DNA of 64,000 nt, from NCBI GenBank assembly GCA_035318465.1, contig DATHES010000045.1:53214-117213 (forward strand). Reading direction: 5' to 3'. The position numbers and the translations under genes are program-made. Origin of the DNA: Polyangiaceae bacterium. Lineage in GTDB: Bacteria; Myxococcota_A; Polyangia; Polyangiales; Polyangiaceae. The notes beneath the pieces are model-generated. The model was not told where the DNA came from and ran no database searches. It worked only from the letters and a program-made list of their open reading frames with translations. This document shows, piece after piece, positions 3,539-52,350 of the stretch. The first letter of the stretch is position 1. Each line of letters opens with the position of its first letter.

Positions 3539-3757
3539 CGGGTCAGGTGCGCTGGGCTCGGCAGAGCTTAGTCGCAGCAGTGCCGATCGCTAAAGGCCAT
3601 AAGCGCCAAGGTGGGCCGCGCGCTCGGGCGATCATCTCCGAGGGTGCCCGCGGGCCGGCCGCGTCTCGCCAGGGCCGGAAGGCACGGTGAGGCGCCCACG
3701 CTACGGGGATTGCCGCAAAATAGGCCCAATCACCGGGCCCTTGGTAGCCTACCGGAG

Positions 3758-4213
3758 ATGGGTTCGTTGACGAAAGGGTGCGCAGGCCTCGGGGTCATGG
3801 CGCTGGTGGTGGCGGGGTGCGGTTCGGCAGGCTCGAACCGCGGACTCTCTTCGGCCGCCGAAACGCATTCGCTCTCGAGGCCCTGGACGGCCTGGCAAGA
3901 GACCGGTCTCGCCACGTACTACGCCTCGAGTCTAGCGGGGCGCCGAACGGCGAACGGCGAACGGTACGACCCCTCCTTGCTGACGGCTGCCCATCGGCGG
4001 CTCCCTTTCGGGACGCTGGTAGAAGTGCGAAGACGCGATGGAAAGCGCAGCGTCATCGTGCGTATCAACGACCGCGGGCCCTTCGTCGCCAATCGCGTCA
4101 TCGATCTCTCCTTCCGCGCCGCCGAGGCGCTCGGGATCGTGCATTTGGGCAAAGCCGTCGTGGAGATCCACCCCTACGGCTCGCCGGATCGAAACGTGCC
4201 GCCCCGCTTCTGA
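3758..4213 (+). CDS. rlpA: RlpA-family septal ring lytic transglycosylase lipoprotein (DPBB domain)
   Basis: Signal MGSLTKGCAGLGVMALVVAGC, followed by GLATYYASSLAGRRTANGERYD...TAAHRRLPFGTLVEVRR...VIVRINDRGPF...VIDLSFRAAEALG, the typical RlpA DPBB signature. Track ORF 3611.. trimmed to ATG 3758. Confidence 0.85.
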   Translation: MGSLTKGCAGLGVMALVVAGCGSAGSNRGLSSAAETHSLSRPWTAWQETGLATYYASSLAGRRTANGERYDPSLLTAAHRRLPFGTLVEVRRRDGKRSVIVRINDRGPFVANRVIDLSFRAAEALGIVHLGKAVVEIHPYGSPDRNVPPRF

Positions 4214-4275
4214 CGAACGCGCTGGCGACGCGTCTTGCGCGTTCAAAACCGCGCCTGGTCGCGGGCACTCGCGTC

Positions 4276-4860
4276 TCAGGGACCGACCCCGGCCAACCAC
4301 TGCCCTGCCAGCCGCCGGAACGCGCGCTCGCGACGAACGATGGGCGCAATGCCCCGGCAAGGTGTCGACTGGTTGCGCTCGGGGCAAGAAGCACATGGCG
4401 TGCGATCCGGCCCGCGCCGCCGATAGCGCGTCACCAGGCCCAGCAGCGGGATGGCGCAGACGGCCGCGAATGCACAGCCCGCGAGGCCGAACTGGACGGC
4501 ACGACCAAGCGCATAGGCAATGGCGAGCGCCGGCAGGAACCGCGAAACGAGCTTCGGCGCCCGTGCCCGAGACTTCGACCGGCGTGAGATCGTCGCGTAG
4601 ACCACCCCGGCCAGGCCGAACGCTCCGAGCACCGCCAGGGCCGCGGGGGGCGCGGGCAGAAGGACGGACAGGGCCAAGCCCCCGACGCTGCCCGAGCCGA
4701 CCAGGAGACAGCCGCGGCACAAGCGGTTGCGCCTTCCGAGCCGCACCACTTCGCCGCGGTACTCATCGCAGAGCGGGTGGTGCGCAAAACGATGAAAACG
4801 ATGTGCCGTGCAGGCGAGCCGATCGATCCTGGCGGCGAGCCGCGCCGGAAGCCGCGGCAT
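4276..4860 (-). CDS. Cys-rich polytopic membrane protein (DUF2085-like?)
   Basis: Trimmed to MPRLPARL... (ATG at 4860), 2 nt downstream of the YbjQ stop. Has HHPLCDEY...RLCRGC and PCASCPERNQSTPC motifs and several hydrophobic helices. Confidence 0.55.
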   Translation of the reverse strand: MPRLPARLAARIDRLACTAHRFHRFAHHPLCDEYRGEVVRLGRRNRLCRGCLLVGSGSVGGLALSVLLPAPPAALAVLGAFGLAGVVYATISRRSKSRARAPKLVSRFLPALAIAYALGRAVQFGLAGCAFAAVCAIPLLGLVTRYRRRGPDRTPCASCPERNQSTPCRGIAPIVRRERAFRRLAGQWLAGVGP

Positions 4861-5216: not shown

Positions 5217-5445
5217 CCTCGCTTCTCCTCTTGTCTCCCCCTGACAGCGCCGCGAAAGTTTAATCGACACGACCCAGCTCGTCCACGAAATCATGCCGCT
5301 TGCGCGCGGGCATCGGTCGGTTGGCGCGACCCTCGCGAAGAACCCGGGGGCACCGGCGCGACCCAACGCTCTTGCGGCATCGCGCTCGCTCTTTTCTGAC
5401 CAAAGGAGCCTCTTGCCTATTGGATTTCGGCAGGAGGACGGAGTT

Positions 5446-8796: not shown

Positions 8797-9500
8797 AGCC
8801 CCCCGTCAACGCGACGCGAGCCGCTCTCATCGGGCTCGGGGTCGGCGTGGTGACGCTCATCGCCTCGACGTTGACGGTCTACGCCACCGTGCGATCAGCG
8901 CGCGAGCGACTCGTCATCGCAGCCGCTCCGAGCAAAGTCGCCGTCGCCGCCAACGCCGAGGATGCCTATTGCACGCCGCGCTTCAAAGAGGTGCTCGAGC
9001 GCGTGCTGCACTCGTGCGGCCTCTCCGAAGGGGAAGCGCGACGCGGATGCAAACCCGCCGACGTGAAGACTTTCGCCTCCATCAGCGGTCAGGACTTCAA
9101 CGAGCTGTTCACGCCGCTACGCAAGCGCGGGGCCGTCATCCTCTTCGATTCCGGTAAAGAGGACCTCGACGATGGCGCCCAGAAAATCCTGGAAGAGCGC
9201 TGGCTCGACCGCAAGGGCGCCCGCTACTTCTTCGTCGTGGGCCGTGCCTCCAAGACCGGCACGGTGGAGACCAACCGCGCCCTTTCGCACCGCCGGGCCA
9301 ACTCCATCCAGTTTCACGTCAAAGAGAAATTCGCCGACTCGGAGCTCGACAAGCGCCTCGGCCTTCTCTGGCTCGGCAACGAGTTTGCGCAGCTCGACAA
9401 GGACTTCTGCAACTGGGAGACGTCACGATCCGGCAGCAAATGCGACGACGAGTCGATCAACCGCAGCGCCTTCGTGTCATGGGTCGACTGCCGACTCTGA
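8793..9500 (+). CDS. membrane-anchored OmpA_C-like domain protein
   Basis: GTG 8793 overlaps the upstream TGA (GTGA). Has an N-terminal TM helix and ILFDSGKEDLDDGAQKIL...GRASKTGTVETNRALSHRRANSI, an OmpA-like peptidoglycan-binding pattern. Contains 6 Cys. Confidence 0.7.
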   Translation: MKPPVNATRAALIGLGVGVVTLIASTLTVYATVRSARERLVIAAAPSKVAVAANAEDAYCTPRFKEVLERVLHSCGLSEGEARRGCKPADVKTFASISGQDFNELFTPLRKRGAVILFDSGKEDLDDGAQKILEERWLDRKGARYFFVVGRASKTGTVETNRALSHRRANSIQFHVKEKFADSELDKRLGLLWLGNEFAQLDKDFCNWETSRSGSKCDDESINRSAFVSWVDCRL

Positions 9501-10183
9501 GCGTCCGCCTCGCGCTCGGCATCCTTGCCTGCGCAGGGGCGCCAGCAGCGTGCCGCGACGAGGCCAGCCAAGCCGCCGCGCGCGGCGCAACCCGCGAGCG
9601 CAGCGAAATCGTCGTGGCCAAGGGGGGATCGTCGGAGACCAAAGCGTCGAGCGCGAGCCCCGCCGCATCGCCGCCGCCCACACCGGCTTCTCCGCGCAGG
9701 CTCTGCGACGGACAGCTCGGCAAGCCGGGCCGCGAGCTCACGAAAAAGCCGCTCGCGCGCAAGTTCGCGCCAGGGGCGAGGGCGCCCACCACCACGCTCC
9801 CGACGGGCAGATGGCTGTGGATCAACTTGTGGGCCGCGTGGTGCGCGCCCTGTAAGGAGGAGATGCCGCGTCTTGCGTCGTTTACCTCGCGGCTCGCGCA
9901 GGCCGGACAGGAGGCGACGCTCGTTTTCGTTTCGCTCGACGACGACGAACGACAGCTCGAGCAGTTCCTCGCCAGGGGCGGCGACGGCCTCACCCGTGCT
10001 ACCTATTGGCTGCGTGACGGGCGGGAGCGCGACGACTGGCTGACGGCCATGGGATTGCCCAAGGCGCCCGATCTACCGGTGCAGGTGCTCGTGGATCCGC
10101 GCGGCAAGGTTCGCTGCACGGTGCATGGCGCCATCGAAGACGCCGATTACGCCGAGATCGCCAGCGCGCTCGCCGCGCCGTGA
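9479..10183 (+). CDS. TlpA-like thiol:disulfide oxidoreductase lipoprotein
   Basis: Signal MGRLPTLSVRLALGILAC and thioredoxin motif LWAAWCAPCKEEMP. Overlaps the upstream gene end by 22 nt. Confidence 0.85.
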   Translation: MGRLPTLSVRLALGILACAGAPAACRDEASQAAARGATRERSEIVVAKGGSSETKASSASPAASPPPTPASPRRLCDGQLGKPGRELTKKPLARKFAPGARAPTTTLPTGRWLWINLWAAWCAPCKEEMPRLASFTSRLAQAGQEATLVFVSLDDDERQLEQFLARGGDGLTRATYWLRDGRERDDWLTAMGLPKAPDLPVQVLVDPRGKVRCTVHGAIEDADYAEIASALAAP

Positions 10184-46544: not shown

Positions 46545-47069
46545 TCATCGCTGCGCAGCAGCGTCCGCAGCACCCGGCGAAAGGGACGCGATCCAGCCGC
46601 TTACGCACGCGAGCACGGCGTCGGGTAGCCGACCGAGTCCGAACGGCATCCGCTCGCCACAAGGTGGCGTCACCGCCGCGAGTTTCTGCCAAAGAAACGA
46701 CTGCTCCGGAGCGCCCCGCACGACGCGCACCCAGTCCTTGCAAATCGACGACGGAACCTCGAAGAGCTGAGGCTCGAGCGGGGTTTCGACGAGCCGGAGC
46801 CCGAAGGCCGTCGTGTTGCCGCCGTGGCAGTTGTCCCAGCTGCATGCCACGCCGAAGAGATTCTTTTGAATCGACTCGCCGGTCGGCTCGCAGCGAATGG
46901 CGTTGAGATCGGGCAGCCAGCTCGGCGCATCGCCCGCGCTGGGCGCGTCTTGGGCGCTCTCAGCGTCGCTCTCGACAGACGTCACTGCACCAGAATCGGA
47001 GCAGCCTTGCGCGCCCGCTGCGGGCAAGAACGCACGGAGCGCGAGAAAGACGACGTCTCGCCGGTCCAC
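46545..47069 (-). CDS. lipoprotein with PSCyt1-like (planctomycete cytochrome c-like) domain, CxxxxCH variant
   Basis: GTG 47069 gives the signal MDRRDVVFLALRAFLPAAGAQGC. The C-terminal region reads LFGVACSWDNCHGG...FGLRL....VVRGAPEQSFLWQKL....MPFG...LP......V.GWI. This follows the PSCyt1 pattern C..CHG..GL.L...PG.PE.S.L...MP..L......WI, except for the 4-residue Cys spacing. Confidence 0.55.
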   Translation of the reverse strand: MDRRDVVFLALRAFLPAAGAQGCSDSGAVTSVESDAESAQDAPSAGDAPSWLPDLNAIRCEPTGESIQKNLFGVACSWDNCHGGNTTAFGLRLVETPLEPQLFEVPSSICKDWVRVVRGAPEQSFLWQKLAAVTPPCGERMPFGLGRLPDAVLACVSGWIASLSPGAADAAAQR

Positions 47070-47100
47070 GCTGCGCTGGGCGCGCGATCGGATCGTCCGA

Positions 47101-48705
47101 TCACCCAGGACGACCAAGCGCAGCCGCCCGGCGGGAGTGCTCCACGTACTCGGACCAGGTCTTGGGACCGCCCGGCTCTTGAAATGCCCAGCGGCGCGGC
47201 CCGTATTCCCCGTCGAGGTGACGCCGCACTTCCTCGAGCGCGGAGGACTGGATGCGGCAACGCTTGGCCGCGACGTCGATACCGTAGAGCTTGGCCGAGT
47301 TGAGGCCGAAGATCTTGGCCTTGTTGGCTTTGTCGAGCGGCGGGTAGCCATACTGCTGTTGCAGCTCTTCGGGGATATTGAGATTGCGAAACCACTCGAT
47401 GTACGGCTGGGGTGAACCGTAAATGACGCAGTCCGTTCCCCAGACGACCCGATCGACGCCGACGTACTTCATCAGCTTGCCGAAGAAATGCGCCGCCGCC
47501 GTGGCGTTCGTGTTCACCTGGTTGATGGCGCTGCCAACCTCGGCATACACGTTCTGGTTGGGACCGACGCCGTTGTCGATGAGCGAACGGATGAGCGCGT
47601 TCACGCCCGTCGGATTGGGCTCGCTGTCGTCGTAGGCCCCCTCCGGCGGGGCGGCATTGGTCGTCTCGAAGCCCGAGCAGATGCCCGAATGGTAAATGAT
47701 GAAGTTCGCCTGCGGGTAAGCCTTGGCGACGATGCCCACCTCGCGGGGGTGGTTGTGCTCTTTCTCGAAGAAGCTCCCGATGGGCAGGCCCTTGTGCACG
47801 CAAAACCGGTTCAAGCCGAGGGCAAGTCCGTGCTCGATGATCTGCCGCGACTCCGGCTCGTCCAAAAAGTACCCTGCTGACCCGCGGGGATCGATGGAGG
47901 CCGCATTGAAGCCGGGATACATCTTCCATCCCGCGGCGCCGCGTTCGCAGTAGAGCTTCGTCATCAGCTCTTTCTGCTTGTCGACGCCGGTGATGTCCTT
48001 CGGCAAGACTTGAAAGTGCTGCACGACGCGCTGGGTGTTGAACGCGAGTGCATTGATCTTGTCGCGCGATCCGACCATCGACTCGTTGGAGAGCGGCATC
48101 CCGCAGGGATCCATGTTCGAGGGATCGTCGGGGCACGAGGTGCCCGGCCACGACGTGAGCACGGTCATGGCGGTGTCGCTGTTCATGAACATGCTGTTGA
48201 TGTAGGCGTTTTCGTTGGCGATGATGAAAAGGGGCCCGAACTGCGCCAGAACCGACGGCGGAAAGCGCTTGGTGTCGTCGGTGTTGAACCAGTGGGTCTG
48301 CACGTCGAAGATGAACTCCTCGCCGGCCACGACGGTGCACGCGGCGGCCTCGTCGAACATCGCTTCGGGCGGCACGCAGAGGGGCCCTCCCGCTTCTTTG
48401 CCCGCGTCCACGGCCGGGCTGAGACCCGATCCGCCGTTGCTCGAGCAACCGCTCACCAGGTTGATGCACCAGAGCGTGGTCACCATCCCCATCGCGCTGG
48501 CCAGGAATTCGCGGCGATCCACGCCGAGACGGCGCGCGTTCTCGTCCGCTTTCTCGAGCACGAGACGGCGCAGCTTCGTCTCGTAAGGCGTTTCAAAGTG
48601 AAAGTACTCACCGTTCGAGCAAGGCCCCATCCACAAGGGCGGATTCAGCGGCAGCTCGGGATCGGTCTTCTTGCGCCTCTTCAGCCAGGGGAATTTGGTC
48701 TTCAT
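47101..48705 (-). CDS. exported metal-dependent amidohydrolase (Amidohydro_2-like TIM barrel) with Tat motif and lipobox
   Basis: DRREFLASAMG...LVSGC (twin-arginine plus lipobox) is preceded by an N-terminal extension of about 65 aa. The motifs FDVQTHW, CVHKG, IIYHSG and VVWGTDC fit amidohydrolase metal ligands. Confidence 0.8.
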   Translation of the reverse strand: MKTKFPWLKRRKKTDPELPLNPPLWMGPCSNGEYFHFETPYETKLRRLVLEKADENARRLGVDRREFLASAMGMVTTLWCINLVSGCSSNGGSGLSPAVDAGKEAGGPLCVPPEAMFDEAAACTVVAGEEFIFDVQTHWFNTDDTKRFPPSVLAQFGPLFIIANENAYINSMFMNSDTAMTVLTSWPGTSCPDDPSNMDPCGMPLSNESMVGSRDKINALAFNTQRVVQHFQVLPKDITGVDKQKELMTKLYCERGAAGWKMYPGFNAASIDPRGSAGYFLDEPESRQIIEHGLALGLNRFCVHKGLPIGSFFEKEHNHPREVGIVAKAYPQANFIIYHSGICSGFETTNAAPPEGAYDDSEPNPTGVNALIRSLIDNGVGPNQNVYAEVGSAINQVNTNATAAAHFFGKLMKYVGVDRVVWGTDCVIYGSPQPYIEWFRNLNIPEELQQQYGYPPLDKANKAKIFGLNSAKLYGIDVAAKRCRIQSSALEEVRRHLDGEYGPRRWAFQEPGGPKTWSEYVEHSRRAAALGRPG

Positions 48706-48755: not shown

Positions 48756-49886
48756 TCAGAAATTGCTGGCCGACCAGGGTCGGCCGGAGCTCGGCGCGTA
48801 GTATCCGAACATGTTGCACATCTCCCCGGTGTGGACGGCGTCCCCAAATCGCAATGTCACGGGGCCGTCATTCACCACTTCGCACTCCCACTCGATGCGG
48901 TCGCCGGCCTTGAGATCGAGCAGGCCGCTCCAGGCGCCGGACTGACGTGTGTCCGCGTTCCAGGGCTGATTGATCTGGAGGCTGTCGAACGTGAACATCT
49001 TGGGATCGTGCCAGTCGTAGTCCTCGAAAATCTGCCGGCGTTCCCCGCCAATGACGGAGAACGCGGAGAATCGGACGGTATGGGAATGGTAGTGACCGGT
49101 GGCGCCCACCAGCCTCAGATCTTGTGCCGCCGTCGCTAGACCCTTCGTGATCTTGGTGGTGGCCGGCGGGATATTGGCGGCGAGCCCGGCCAGAAAGAAG
49201 ATGGGATCGGAGAGAACCTTCACCGTGCTCGCGTCCCGATAAATCACGTTGACCCAGGCTTCGCGCAGCATCGGAGTCGTCGATGTGTTGAGGTAGTGAA
49301 GCTGGAACACCGCTTGCGCGCGCGCCGTGAGCTTCTGGGCGAGACCGTCATTCTCGGGCGCGGGGTTTTGGCTGCGATCGATGTCGATGGTGGGCGTTTG
49401 CGCGCCGAGGATCATCGCCGTATCGAGCCCTTGATTGCACGCCTCCGGTCCATTGGAATCGGGCATTTCCGAGGAGCGGGTGAAGACGAGCAGGTGATGG
49501 GATCCGGGCCGCATCCGGCCGTGGTATTCCGAATGGAACACCTCGACGTCGTTGGGCGTCTTCATGAAGACGCAATCGGTCGTCTCTTCGCCGGGCATGA
49601 GGATGTACTTTTGGACCTCGGCCGGATCGTCGTAGTTCTTGGGACCGTAGTGAAGCTGCAACCCCAGGTTCGGCGGGGGTGGCTGGATGCAGAACTCGTC
49701 ACCCGCGTAGCCCGAATGGATGTTGCAGGGCATCGCGCCGGGGCCGACCGGCGGGCCAGCTTCGGGCGTCGTCGGGGGAGGAGGCGGGGGGTTAGCGGCG
49801 CTCGGCGCGCTGTCAGAGCCACACGCCGGCACGAGCGCGAATGCGCAAGCAAGCGGTAGCCAGGAGAGAATACTCAAGTTTTTCAT
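48756..49886 (-). CDS. copper type II ascorbate-dependent monooxygenase-like (PHM/DBH fold) lipoprotein
   Basis: SD ggagg and signal MKNLSILSWLPLACAFALVPAC. The motifs GSHHLLVF, FQLHY, GHYHSH and HTGEMCNMFGYY correspond to the CuH (HH...H) and CuM (HxH...M) ligand segments of peptidylglycine alpha-hydroxylating monooxygenase, as I remember that sequence. Confidence 0.75.
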   Translation of the reverse strand: MKNLSILSWLPLACAFALVPACGSDSAPSAANPPPPPPTTPEAGPPVGPGAMPCNIHSGYAGDEFCIQPPPPNLGLQLHYGPKNYDDPAEVQKYILMPGEETTDCVFMKTPNDVEVFHSEYHGRMRPGSHHLLVFTRSSEMPDSNGPEACNQGLDTAMILGAQTPTIDIDRSQNPAPENDGLAQKLTARAQAVFQLHYLNTSTTPMLREAWVNVIYRDASTVKVLSDPIFFLAGLAANIPPATTKITKGLATAAQDLRLVGATGHYHSHTVRFSAFSVIGGERRQIFEDYDWHDPKMFTFDSLQINQPWNADTRQSGAWSGLLDLKAGDRIEWECEVVNDGPVTLRFGDAVHTGEMCNMFGYYAPSSGRPWSASNF

Positions 49887-49931
49887 GAGGCCTCCTTCGG
49901 GGCTGCGAAAGCGCCATTCACTGTCAACTGG

Positions 49932-49965
49932 TTGGACCAGTAGCAGGTCCAATCGTATGGGACAA
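49932..49965 (-). promoter_or_regulatory. promoter-like element with embedded palindromic operator (candidate GntR site), copy 1
   Basis: Minus sense reads TTGTCC-17 nt-TACTGG, containing TTGGACC-7 nt-GGTCCAA (49932-49952). It lies 50 nt upstream of the monooxygenase ATG. The 22-nt core GGTTGGACCAGTAGCAGGTCCA recurs at 52356-52377 with one mismatch. Confidence 0.5.
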
Positions 49966-50042
49966 GGAAAAAAACCCTGCCGCATCAACGGTTGAGACCG
50001 CCGCCGCCCTTTTTCCTTGGGGGCGGACGAGGGCGGTCGCTT

Positions 50043-50888
50043 TCATCTCGATCCGCGCCGTCGCGGCCGCTCGGGGGCGGCCTCGCTCTCTGCGGGGGCC
50101 GTGCCGTCGAGCGACAACTCGTAGTTGGCGGCGAAGACAGCGACCGCCTCGCGCATCGCGACGCGAGTCTCGGTTTCGGCTCGAGCAGCGTCGCCGGCGC
50201 TGATCGCTTCGACGATCGATTTGCGATAGTCGTTGCTGCGAATCTCGTTGGCCGACCACTTTTCCGCCAGGGGTCCCATCGCGTAGAGGCCTTTGATGAG
50301 ACTGTTGAAGGCGAGCTGGTAGGCCAAGTTGTCGGCGCCTTGCACGGCGCGCTCCCAAAGATGCACCTCCAGCTGAAAGAGACGCTGATCGCCGGTGGCC
50401 TTTTGCATTTCACTGGCAATGGTCAGGAGCTCGTCCTTGAGGGTGCTGGTGGCGCGCAATGCGCAGAGCCGGGCAACGTCGGCGGCGATGGCGGCGCGCA
50501 TTTCGAGCACCGCCAACCACACGACCGCGACGTCCTTTCCCCCGCGCGCGTGCTCGGCCATGAGCGCGAGCAGATCCAAGCCGGCATGTCGTTTGAAGTC
50601 CAACACCTTGGTCTCGCCGCCCTGCGAAATCTTGAGCAGACCAATCTGCTCCAGCCGCTTCAGCGCCTCGCGCACGACGTGCCGATTGACGCCGAACACG
50701 TCGACGAGCGATCGTTCGGCGGGAAGGCTCGCCGAAGGCAAATAGCGACCTGTCATGATCTCGCTGGCGAGTTGCTCGAATACCTGGTCGGCAAGGGAGC
50801 GGTTTTGGATCGCACGCAGCGGCACGAAGTCTCTTATCTGGTTCCCGTCACGACGAGGCATGACCACCTTGGCGAAATCACCCGGCAT
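50043..50888 (-). CDS. GntR family transcriptional regulator (FadR subfamily, FCD domain)
   Basis: Winged HTH LPAERSLVDVFGVNRHVVREALKRLEQIGLLKI.QGGETKV followed by an all-helical FCD-type domain. The start is 10 nt after the stop of the propeller gene. Confidence 0.88.
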   Translation of the reverse strand: MPGDFAKVVMPRRDGNQIRDFVPLRAIQNRSLADQVFEQLASEIMTGRYLPSASLPAERSLVDVFGVNRHVVREALKRLEQIGLLKISQGGETKVLDFKRHAGLDLLALMAEHARGGKDVAVVWLAVLEMRAAIAADVARLCALRATSTLKDELLTIASEMQKATGDQRLFQLEVHLWERAVQGADNLAYQLAFNSLIKGLYAMGPLAEKWSANEIRSNDYRKSIVEAISAGDAARAETETRVAMREAVAVFAANYELSLDGTAPAESEAAPERPRRRGSR

Positions 50889-50898
50889 AGGACGACGC

Positions 50899-52350
50899 TC
50901 ACGGAAGACCGAACGCCACGAGGCCCCCCGGTTGGGTACCGCTGGGAAGCCATCCCCATCCGTGGCCGGCGAAGACCATTCCCCCGGAAACCGAGACGCC
51001 TCCCCCCATCGATAGCCCGACCGGCCGAGCCCAGAGCAGGTGGCCGTCGGCAATGTCGTATGCGCGCGCCTCGCCTGCCAGGGTAGGAACGAAGAGGATG
51101 CCGTTGGCGAGGGCGACACCGCCGAAGGTGCCCGGCGTCGTCGTGACGCGCCAGCGCACGTTGCCGTCCGCGGCATCGAGCGCGAAGATCGTGGCCTCAC
51201 CGGGACCTCCGCCCACACCCGCGCTGCCACCGGTACTGCCATTGTTGGAGGCGACGTAGATCACGCCATCGGCATAGGCGCTGGAGGCCATGACGCCGCC
51301 ATTGGAGCCTCCGGGGGTCAAAAGCGTGGTCCAGATCACCTCGCCGGTGTCGCGGTCGAGTGCGAAGTAGCGCCCGCCCTTGTCGCCCACGCCGACCATG
51401 GCGCGGCTGCCCACCTGGAAAAGGTTGGGGCTGGCGCCGACGTCGAAATCGGGACCGTTCGAGGTTGGAACCTGAAAACGGTCGCCCATGGTGAACTGCT
51501 GCGCCCAGGCGAGCTCGCCGGTTTCGTAACGGATGGCGATGAGCGCGTCTGAATAGGGCGAGGCGACGCCTTGCGTATACTCTTGCCCGGTGCCGATGAA
51601 CGCGAGCTTGCGGCCCTTGTCGATGGCCGCAGAGGACCAGACCGATACGCCGCTTCCGTCGGTCAGAAAGAGGCGCCACTTGACGGCGCCGGTCTTGACG
51701 TCGACGCCCACCACATTGCCGCGAAAGGCCGGCGTGGCAGGCAAGAAAACCTGGTAAGAGCCGACACCGATGAGAAGCAGGTCGTCAATGACGACCGGCG
51801 ACGACCACAGCATGAGCGAGGCTTGCTCGTCGATCCTCTGCTGCCACAGGATTTCGCCCGTTTTGCGATCGACGGAGGAAAGGAGCGCGGTGTGGGCTCC
51901 GATGTAGACGGCGTTTTCCGTGACGAAGGGGGAGTCGTTGACCTGATTGGGCGCACCGGCGGGCTGGACCGGGGTCGCCCAGATGGACTCGCCGCTGCGC
52001 GCATCGACGGCGCGGAGCACGCTGTTCCAGTCTCCGAAATAGGCGACACCGCCGAGCACGCACACGGTGCTGGTCACGGCCGTCTCCGAGAAGGACCACC
52101 GCGGCTCGAGCGTCGTCACGTTGCTCTTGGTGATGGTCTGCTCTAGCGGATTGTTCCGGCTGTTGTCGTAATCGCGCCCATAGGAGGGCCAGTCGGATGA
52201 CAGGGGCGGCGCGGCATCCGCGCCGCCATCGCCCTCGGGGGGTGTGAGCGCCGACGTCGAATCGCTGCACGCGGCGATGGCCGCGGAGAGTGCGAGGCCC
52301 TGCGCCAGCGCACGCCCTGATTGAAGGAAAATCGCCCCAACAGGTCTCAT
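50899..52350 (-). CDS. PQQ-dependent-dehydrogenase-like beta-propeller lipoprotein
   Basis: Signal MRPVGAIFLQSGRALAQGLALSAAIAAC. DWPSYGRDYDNSRNNPLEQ..T.SNVTTLEPRW is the quinoprotein N-terminal signature. Repeated A(V/L)D..TGE..W blades follow. The longer track ORF overlaps merR and was rejected. Confidence 0.8.
   Translation of the reverse strand: MRPVGAIFLQSGRALAQGLALSAAIAACSDSTSALTPPEGDGGADAAPPLSSDWPSYGRDYDNSRNNPLEQTITKSNVTTLEPRWSFSETAVTSTVCVLGGVAYFGDWNSVLRAVDARSGESIWATPVQPAGAPNQVNDSPFVTENAVYIGAHTALLSSVDRKTGEILWQQRIDEQASLMLWSSPVVIDDLLLIGVGSYQVFLPATPAFRGNVVGVDVKTGAVKWRLFLTDGSGVSVWSSAAIDKGRKLAFIGTGQEYTQGVASPYSDALIAIRYETGELAWAQQFTMGDRFQVPTSNGPDFDVGASPNLFQVGSRAMVGVGDKGGRYFALDRDTGEVIWTTLLTPGGSNGGVMASSAYADGVIYVASNNGSTGGSAGVGGGPGEATIFALDAADGNVRWRVTTTPGTFGGVALANGILFVPTLAGEARAYDIADGHLLWARPVGLSMGGGVSVSGGMVFAGHGWGWLPSGTQPGGLVAFGLP

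Follow-up and report, generated by a model that had tools for sequence, protein, structure and literature searches.

The stretch analysed here, hereafter the window, comprises 64,000 nucleotides (nt) of a contig from a Polyangiaceae bacterium (GenBank assembly GCA_035318465.1, contig DATHES010000045.1, positions 53,214 to 117,213 of the forward strand). Its minus strand carries, in this order, genes for a pyrroloquinoline quinone (PQQ)-like propeller, a GntR/FCD regulator, a protein that resembles peptidylglycine alpha-hydroxylating monooxygenase (PHM), an Amidohydro_2 protein and a cytochrome-like open reading frame (ORF) of 190 aa. Lipoboxes are found on all four structural proteins, and the genes that flank the module (VOC, DEAD helicase, RibA, MerR, desaturase and GH25) are unrelated to it. 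The PHM-like gene (48756–49886, minus strand) encodes a putative two-domain copper monooxygenase lipoprotein of the PHM/DBH type with 376 residues, an assignment drawn from its translation, homologs, a structural model, Foldseek and hhalign. In animals, PHM and dopamine beta-hydroxylase (DBH) are the copper enzymes that produce amidated peptide hormones and noradrenaline, respectively. The longest ORF at this locus spans 48756–49988, and the start supported by homologs is the ATG at 49886; a database protein that is 99% identical and relatives at 78% are likewise 371–376 aa long. A database search with the protein returned at least 182 relatives at E ≤ 1e-3, all labelled 'hypothetical', and the few named source organisms among them are metagenome-assembled genomes (MAGs) of Polyangiaceae. 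Fifty-four of these relatives form the alignment from which conservation was read. The N-terminus, MKNLSILSWLPLACAFALVPAC followed by GS, reads as a lipoprotein signal, and the lipobox cysteine C22 (LVPAC, then GS; 49821–49823, minus strand) lies in a column that is at least 90% conserved. By this lipobox and the conserved C22, the protein is a predicted bacterial lipoprotein.

A preliminary description of this gene had lined up four segments of the protein, GSHHLLVF (residues 128–135), FQLHY (194–198), GHYHSH (264–269) and HTGEMCNMFGYY (352–363), with the motifs HHMLLF, LQVHY, HTHH and DEMCNLYIMYY of rat PHM. The quoted motifs are correct, being contained in the rat PHM core used for comparison (PDB 4e4z_A, identical over 312 residues), and the four segments are present and align with them in order. 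When the 54-sequence family profile was aligned with rat PHM by hhalign (probability 91.6%, E 8.4e-7, 226 columns), six of the six copper ligands were paired, and the match lies well outside what chance would give. The spacing is comparable as well: the HH pair is separated from the third His by 64 residues in PHM and 66 in the bacterial protein, and this His from the HxH pair by 70 and 68. Only the interval between HxH and Met departs from this (70 vs 89), owing to a 19-residue insertion.

The CuH-type pattern, HH with a third His in a QxHY motif, is formed by H130-H131 (49494–49499), which correspond to the PHM ligands H107 and H108, and by H197 of FQLHY (49296–49298), which corresponds to H172; Q195 of the same motif pairs with PHM Q170 in the hhalign alignment. 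The CuM-type pattern, HxH with a Met in an EMC motif, is formed by H265-Y-H267 (49086–49094), equivalent to H242 and H244, and by M356 within E355-M356-C357 (48816–48824), equivalent to M314. All these codons lie on the minus strand. The correspondences come from hhalign, together with hmmsearch alignments against PDB sequences for H130-H131 and profile alignments for the EMC motif. None of the residues H130, H131, H197, H265, H267 and M356 varies among the 54 aligned sequences, which bears out the earlier claim that all six copper-ligand positions of the family are present. In PHM, CuH serves as a His3 electron relay and CuM as the His2Met site for O2, and the two are about 11 Å apart (PMC11234856). 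Six cysteines are also invariant (C54, C66, C105, C150, C335 and C357), and hhalign equates the pair C105/C150 with the PHM disulfide C81-C126 and C335/C357 with C293-C315.

The AlphaFold2 model of the protein, built on the 54-sequence alignment, is all-beta (mean predicted local distance difference test score, pLDDT, 88; predicted template modelling score, pTM, 0.81) and by Foldseek consists of two consecutive beta-sandwich domains of PHM topology. The top 31 Foldseek matches in the PDB are all PHM or DBH (E 4.7e-13 to 3e-9, template modelling (TM) score 0.46–0.68, identity 14–17%, ~322 columns), so that the earlier description of a bacterial lipoprotein with the PHM/DBH fold agrees with both the model and the lipobox. 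The next fold classes in the list are DUF2961/GH172 and PNGase F, which are classed with PHM in the SCOP 'PHM/PNGase F' superfamily. Their appearance lower in the list could be taken to indicate a glycan-acting beta-sandwich protein of this kind, in which the His and Met residues are coincidental. However, these structures match at E 2e-5 or worse, with a TM score of ~0.3 and a root-mean-square deviation above 9 Å, compared with TM scores of 0.55–0.68 for PHM, and the six ligand positions are invariant. A PNGase F/GH172-type function was rejected on these two grounds and is very improbable.

Searches with single sequences and with Pfam models gave a weaker signal. PF03712 (Cu2_monoox_C) matches residues 323–366 with E 0.12 and a score of 12.2 bits, where the cut-off is 23; PF01082 (the N domain) was not detected in the protein by the Pfam scan, and phmmer returned no significant match in the PDB or NCBIfam. 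The preliminary description had staked the assignment on Pfam scores above threshold, and formally this test went against it. Among the 54 relatives, E values below 1 against PF03712 were obtained for 33 (best 1.1e-7), and values of 1e-4 or lower for only two. The 54-sequence profile reached PHM among PDB sequences only at E ~0.5, yet it placed HH on HH and EMCN on EMCN. We attribute the sub-threshold Pfam score to divergence and not to a lack of homology, and consider that the profile-profile and structural evidence outweighs it. The protein is almost certainly homologous to the PHM/DBH catalytic core and shares its fold. It is likely that the protein has two functional copper sites; its copper binding and hydroxylase activity are putative.

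The family to which this protein belongs is large. When 1.84 billion cluster representatives (clusters at 50% identity) were searched exhaustively with the family profile, 1,956 matched at E ≤ 1e-3; of these, 941 reached E ≤ 1e-10 and 220 reached E ≤ 1e-30. A survey of GTDB with one genome per species found 118 stretches with a PHM-like relative, 80 of which were listed, and all 80 come from MAGs. The Myxococcota carriers listed belong to Polyangiaceae, Polyangiales, Myxococcales, Haliangiales and Kofleriaceae and often hold 4–6 paralogs per MAG; the other carriers listed are one Acidobacteriota MAG and 26 Gemmatimonadota species, at ~25% identity. A bacterial member of this family had been called unusual, which is true of the characterized enzymes (PMC7435645) and not of the bacterial family as counted here. 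Each ligand position is 93–98% conserved across ~250 wider relatives, and a few relatives have lost ligands. Conservation of the ligands is 100% in the myxobacterial loci; all 26 Gemmatimonadota loci keep the five His, and a Met motif, DEMxIIFGY, can be read in their sequences.

The many paralogs per genome, together with the few relatives that lack ligands, would fit a PHM-fold copper binder without monooxygenase activity, such as a periplasmic copper buffer, a chaperone, a redox sensor or a pseudo-enzyme. In contrast, both ligand sets, the EMCN motif, the Gln of QxHY and two disulfides are strictly conserved down to 25–40% identity, and such conservation, like the linkage to a redox partner, is what a catalytic site would be expected to show, which makes a non-enzymatic role improbable. 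The paralog-rich MAGs of Polyangiaceae and Polyangiales, with 4–6 copies, include SMAG_U12422, SMAG_U333 and SMAG_U5704 (loci L013–L059). Most such paralogs stand without Amidohydro_2, cytochrome or PQQ neighbours, which suggests that they have diversified in substrate or electron donor.

The characterized members are eukaryotic (PMC7435645), which could mean that a PHM or DBH gene of eukaryotic origin was recently acquired by horizontal transfer. Several observations argue against this. Identity to PHM and DBH is 14–17% and the Pfam scores are below threshold; the GC content of the gene region (62–65%) equals that of the rest of the window; and the ~1,950 clusters include Myxococcota and Gemmatimonadota members at 25% mutual identity. 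The protein also carries a bacterial lipoprotein signal and has bacterial partner genes. Recent transfer from a eukaryote was therefore rejected, and we regard it as highly implausible. At 14–17% identity to the eukaryotic enzymes, the PHM-like family is instead, as judged from its sequences, an old, divergent and unannotated bacterial lineage.

Two genes downstream of the PHM-like gene lies the gene for a putative FoxE-like monohaem c-type cytochrome lipoprotein of 190 aa (46545–47117, minus strand), assigned by a FoxE profile match and invariant motifs. The gene caller likewise gives a product of 190 aa, and the gene starts at a TTG codon and shares its first 17 nt with the end of the Amidohydro_2 gene. 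Proteins of ~160 aa encoded beyond Amidohydro_2 in distant loci are homologs of this ORF (hidden Markov model E 1e-32 to 1e-43). The family alignment shows invariant C92, C97-H98, M157-P158 and W175-I176. C92-SWDN-C97-H98 (46824–46844, minus strand), a putative haem-attachment motif of the CX4CH form, aligns with the CXXCH of Gemmatimonadota relatives and the CH of FoxE, and M157-P158 (46644–46649, minus strand), the putative distal haem ligand, aligns with FoxE M148 and M262. The 45-sequence cytochrome profile matches FoxE (PDB 5mab), the dihaem c-type cytochrome of Rhodobacter ferrooxidans, with E 2.2e-7 on both FoxE repeats; the match pairs the CH of the CXXCH motifs and the 'MP...WI.aGA' segments. 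In Rhodoferax FoxE, haem is bound by Cys37-Cys40-His41 and Cys147-Cys150-His151, with Met94 and Met208 as axial ligands (PMC10654088). The residues C91/C94/H95, C201/C204/H205, M148 and M262 of the FoxE chain differ from these by a constant offset of 54, and by this mapping M157 would align with genuine axial methionines. Haem binding by the 190-aa protein is putative. Pfam gave no match for either the cytochrome-like protein or the Gemmatimonadota fusion described below.

The haem-attachment motif itself differs between clades: CX4CH is present in every Myxococcota copy and the canonical CXXCH in every Gemmatimonadota fusion (L060–L085), a clade-specific insertion of two residues. FoxE is encoded beside the PQQ propeller protein FoxY, in foxEYZ (PMC10654088). 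In the window, too, a FoxE-like cytochrome is accompanied by a PQQ-like propeller, which is a candidate FoxY ortholog.

The cytochrome gene adjoins the module in the window and in five other loci (L004, L005, L006, L008 and L015). In Gemmatimonadota, the cytochrome-like domain is located N-terminal to the PHM-like domain within one ORF of ~455 aa, in 26/26 loci. The order of elements in this fusion is lipobox, CXXCH, LMP, WIEAGAP, a linker of ~10 residues, RMRPGSHH, FNVHY, SHxHS and DEMxIIFGY, and CXXCH stands at a constant distance of ~174 residues before GSHH. This Rosetta-stone fusion and the adjacency in Myxococcota are the strongest available evidence that the cytochrome and the copper protein are paired directly. 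The flanks of the fusion genes (L062, L064, L067 and related loci) hold ORFs that by eye resemble M24 Xaa-Pro peptidases and an L,D-transpeptidase; since these genomes are closely related, this synteny perhaps carries little weight.

We infer from the pairing the direction of electron flow, and a cytochrome c is probably the electron donor to the PHM-like enzyme. On the homology, linkage and fusion seen here, the protein is best read, with somewhat better than even confidence, as a periplasm-facing, deeply diverged bacterial non-coupled binuclear copper monooxygenase of the PHM/DBH type that is driven by cytochrome c. Beside the Pfam results given above, several points weigh against this reading. 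Foldseek found no structural match for the AlphaFold2 model of the cytochrome (pLDDT 79), which was modelled without haem, and the Myxococcota motif is the rarer CX4CH. There is no adjoining cytochrome gene in the closest ortholog locus (L001, 78% identity) or in L012, and most paralog loci, as well as one homolog that is 70% identical, carry none of the module's partner genes in their vicinity. The PHM carboxylate binders R240 and Y318 are T263 and F360 in the PHM-like protein, with N316 kept as N358; therefore, a peptidyl-glycine bound in the PHM manner is an unlikely substrate.

The loci that lack the cytochrome gene also favour an alternative in which the fold and copper sites are as proposed and the cytochrome is not the reductant. 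A small molecule or another protein would then donate the electrons, and the cytochrome would serve the propeller or Amidohydro_2, or accept electrons from a copper protein acting as an oxidase. That FoxE-type cytochromes occur with FoxY in foxEYZ without a copper monooxygenase (PMC10654088) is consistent with such an arrangement. However, in 26 Gemmatimonadota species the cytochrome domain is covalently joined to the PHM-like domain, which speaks for direct pairing, and no PQQ or Amidohydro_2 gene was found near the fusion genes. We consider this alternative possible but unlikely, and retain the cytochrome as the proposed donor.

The remaining genes of the module surround this pair. The PQQ-like beta-propeller lipoprotein (50899–52350, minus strand; 483 aa, lipobox AIAAC) matches Pfam PQQ_2 (1.8e-30) and PQQ (1.1e-26), and its best PDB matches are quinohaemoprotein alcohol dehydrogenases (E 2.7e-19). 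The GntR/FCD transcription regulator (50043–50888, minus strand; start at 50888 or 50861) matches Pfam GntR (7.9e-18) and FCD (1.6e-10) and holds the same position in the 78%-identical ortholog locus; its family hints weakly at a small-molecule, perhaps acidic, effector. A scan of 45.9–52.7 kb for promoters and terminators gave counts near those of shuffled controls and no usable sites.

The Amidohydro_2-family protein (PF04909; 47101–48705, minus strand) has 534 aa, and its gene begins 50 nt downstream of the PHM-like gene. It scores 36.7 bits against a PF04909 cut-off of 26.4, over the C-terminal half only, and neither sequence nor profile searches found a PDB relative. Across nine aligned sequences H138, H304 and H339 never vary, and one sequence has Glu in place of the WGTD Asp. 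The first barrel strand (residues 131–138) reads FIFDVQTH, with DxQxH in place of the usual metal-binding HxH. The protein carries a twin-arginine pair (R64-R65) and a lipobox cysteine, C87. A stretch of ~60 residues upstream of the twin-arginine motif, RREFLAS, and C87 is strongly conserved, which is unusual for a Tat signal; W7, P16, SNGE (30–33), T39, E42 and R46 are invariant within it in nine orthologs down to 41% identity. This stretch may be a chaperone-binding or cytoplasmic segment.

Linkage was counted by tblastn and all-against-all ORF clustering over 85 loci. Amidohydro_2 is linked to the PHM-like gene in nine distinct loci including the window (eight elsewhere), and a PQQ propeller is near it in eight distinct loci including the window. 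Beyond Amidohydro_2, PQQ propellers and regulators, the clustering found no partner shared with the many paralog loci. The 'dedicated operon' of the preliminary description is thus real, as the linkage of Amidohydro_2 shows, and not universal, as most paralogs are otherwise flanked. The PQQ/Amidohydro_2/cytochrome module is recurrent and not obligatory. The recurrence of Amidohydro_2 suggests a hydrolytic, decarboxylating or lyase step that is coupled to hydroxylation.

The arrangement of the module varies with distance. The 78%-identical ortholog locus keeps the order PQQ-GntR-PHM-like-Amidohydro_2. In homologs at 42–48% identity, which lie on contigs of 0.4 to 3.4 Mb, the module genes are retained but arranged divergently: one arm consists of an OmpR/AAA_16 regulator, a 225-aa Cys-rich protein, Amidohydro_2 and the ~160-aa protein, and the other of the PHM-like gene followed by a 252-aa Cys-rich lipoprotein. 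In L004, two secreted Cys-rich proteins of ~227 and ~256 aa (3628–4311 and 9331–10101) accompany the PHM-like/Amidohydro_2/cytochrome module. This pair has equivalents in L005, L006 and L008 and partial ones in L012 and L015; neither protein has a Pfam match or a homolog in the window. Next to the 70%-identical homolog (P0011) stands a divergently oriented gene for a protein of ~770 aa with a hydrazine-synthase-alpha-like propeller (HZS_alpha, PF18582), which replaces the PQQ and Amidohydro_2 genes; neighbours of the HZS_alpha type are located at 5394–7700 in L086 and 498–2861 in L087. The contig of a 68%-identical homolog, P0017 (L088, contig_77715), was excluded from synteny because it looks like a frameshift-rich long-read assembly, with many short fragmented gene calls such as three successive Aldedh pieces.

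In the mechanism that we propose, domain 1 would hold the electron-transfer copper (CuH) on H130, H131 and H197, and domain 2 the O2-activating copper (CuM) on H265, H267 and M356. The FoxE-like cytochrome lipoprotein (46545–47117) would supply CuH with two electrons per turnover, one at a time, and would take the place of ascorbate, which is not expected in the bacterial periplasm. CuM would hydroxylate a C-H bond of the substrate, and the product or a precursor would be handled by the adjoining Tat-exported Amidohydro_2 lipoprotein. Upstream, electrons may reach the cytochrome from the PQQ-like propeller lipoprotein, and the GntR/FCD regulator would control the module. The PHM-like protein has no PAL domain, and the propeller encoded nearby has its matches among PQQ dehydrogenases and BamB, not PAL; with the carboxylate anchors changed and no PAL-type lyase, a literal peptidylglycine-amidating function is not supported. 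A more ambitious reading unites the four membrane lipoproteins in a self-contained periplasmic oxygenation system that is independent of ascorbate, in which a PQQ dehydrogenase would oxidize the hydroxylated product or a co-substrate, electrons would pass through the cytochrome to CuH, and Amidohydro_2 would cleave the intermediate as PAL does. We regard this full scheme as rather improbable. If true, it would be a prokaryotic counterpart, possibly an ancestor, of the animal PHM/DBH enzymes and, among PHM-type enzymes, the first to have a reductant protein dedicated to it.

Compared with PHM, the catalytic core of PAM (1PHM, 1SDW and 4E4Z), the bacterial protein has the same two-domain beta-sandwich (Foldseek E 4.7e-13, TM score up to 0.68), has the CuH (His-His...His), CuM (His-x-His...Met), EMCN and QxHY motifs at aligned positions, and keeps two of the five PHM disulfides. 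In contrast to PHM, it is a lipoprotein, ~16% identical and below the Pfam cut-offs, with no PAL domain. T263 and F360 stand for R240 and Y318, 19 residues are inserted between HxH and Met, the conserved N-terminal Cys pair C54 and C66 is extra, and the likely reductant is a c-type cytochrome instead of ascorbate. DBH, tyramine beta-monooxygenase and MOXD (4ZEL) share the catalytic core (Foldseek E 1.3e-11, TM score 0.50–0.56). DBH has an N-terminal accessory DOMON domain, and the Gemmatimonadota relatives likewise bear an N-terminal redox domain on the core; however, the domain that is fused to the bacterial core or encoded beside it is a FoxE-like cytochrome and not DOMON, there is no C-terminal dimerization domain, and identity is 14%.

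The partner matches both repeats of FoxE (5MAB), which belongs to the Fe(II)-oxidation operon foxEYZ, in the haem CH and the axial-Met segment 'MP...WI.aGA', and a PQQ propeller gene is nearby. In contrast to FoxE, it has one unit and not two, carries CX4CH in Myxococcota, is a lipoprotein, and is encoded beside a copper monooxygenase, or in one ORF with it, instead of belonging to an iron-oxidation system. Haem proteins feed copper oxygenases elsewhere: the CDH cytochrome domain or CYBDOM donates to LPMOs, and cytochrome b561 with ascorbate to PHM and DBH. These systems are alike in that, as is generally known, a haem protein passes single electrons to an O2-activating mononuclear copper, but they use b-type haem and unrelated folds.

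Canonical Cu2_monooxygen domains occur in some bacteria, and fold-level assignments such as the 'PHM/PNGase F' superfamily presumably already tag some of the proteins described here, so that a PHM fold in bacteria is not categorically new. What is new is the large size and divergence of this bacterial branch, which so far lacks annotation, together with its putative c-type cytochrome, dedicated to the enzyme and in some lineages fused to it, and the Amidohydro_2/PQQ-propeller module that recurs beside it. In the literature searched, PHM, DBH and tyramine beta-monooxygenase figure as enzymes of eukaryotes that depend on ascorbate. A review table gives PHM and DBM as eukaryote-only cuproproteins that are absent from the bacterial cuproproteome (PMC7435645), and the evolution of PAM has been discussed within eukaryotes alone (PMC6529398). 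No description of a bacterial PHM/DBH-type enzyme or of a dedicated c-type cytochrome partner was found in the literature searched, a coverage that leaves out most subscription journals and does not prove absence; the PDB to April 2026 returned no bacterial structure of the PHM/DBH fold by Foldseek.

The electron route between the two distant copper sites of PHM and DBH is still debated (PMC11234856), and a bacterial branch with both copper sites and a cytochrome donor would give a tractable prokaryotic model of this electron transfer. Such a branch would also demonstrate that this fold, with its two metal sites, is older than eukaryotes or occurs outside them, and it would extend the bacterial cuproproteome by a new class. 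At the same time, a putative function emerges for ~2,000 'hypothetical protein' clusters from soil members of Myxococcota and Gemmatimonadota, and with it an indication of a novel periplasmic oxidative pathway.

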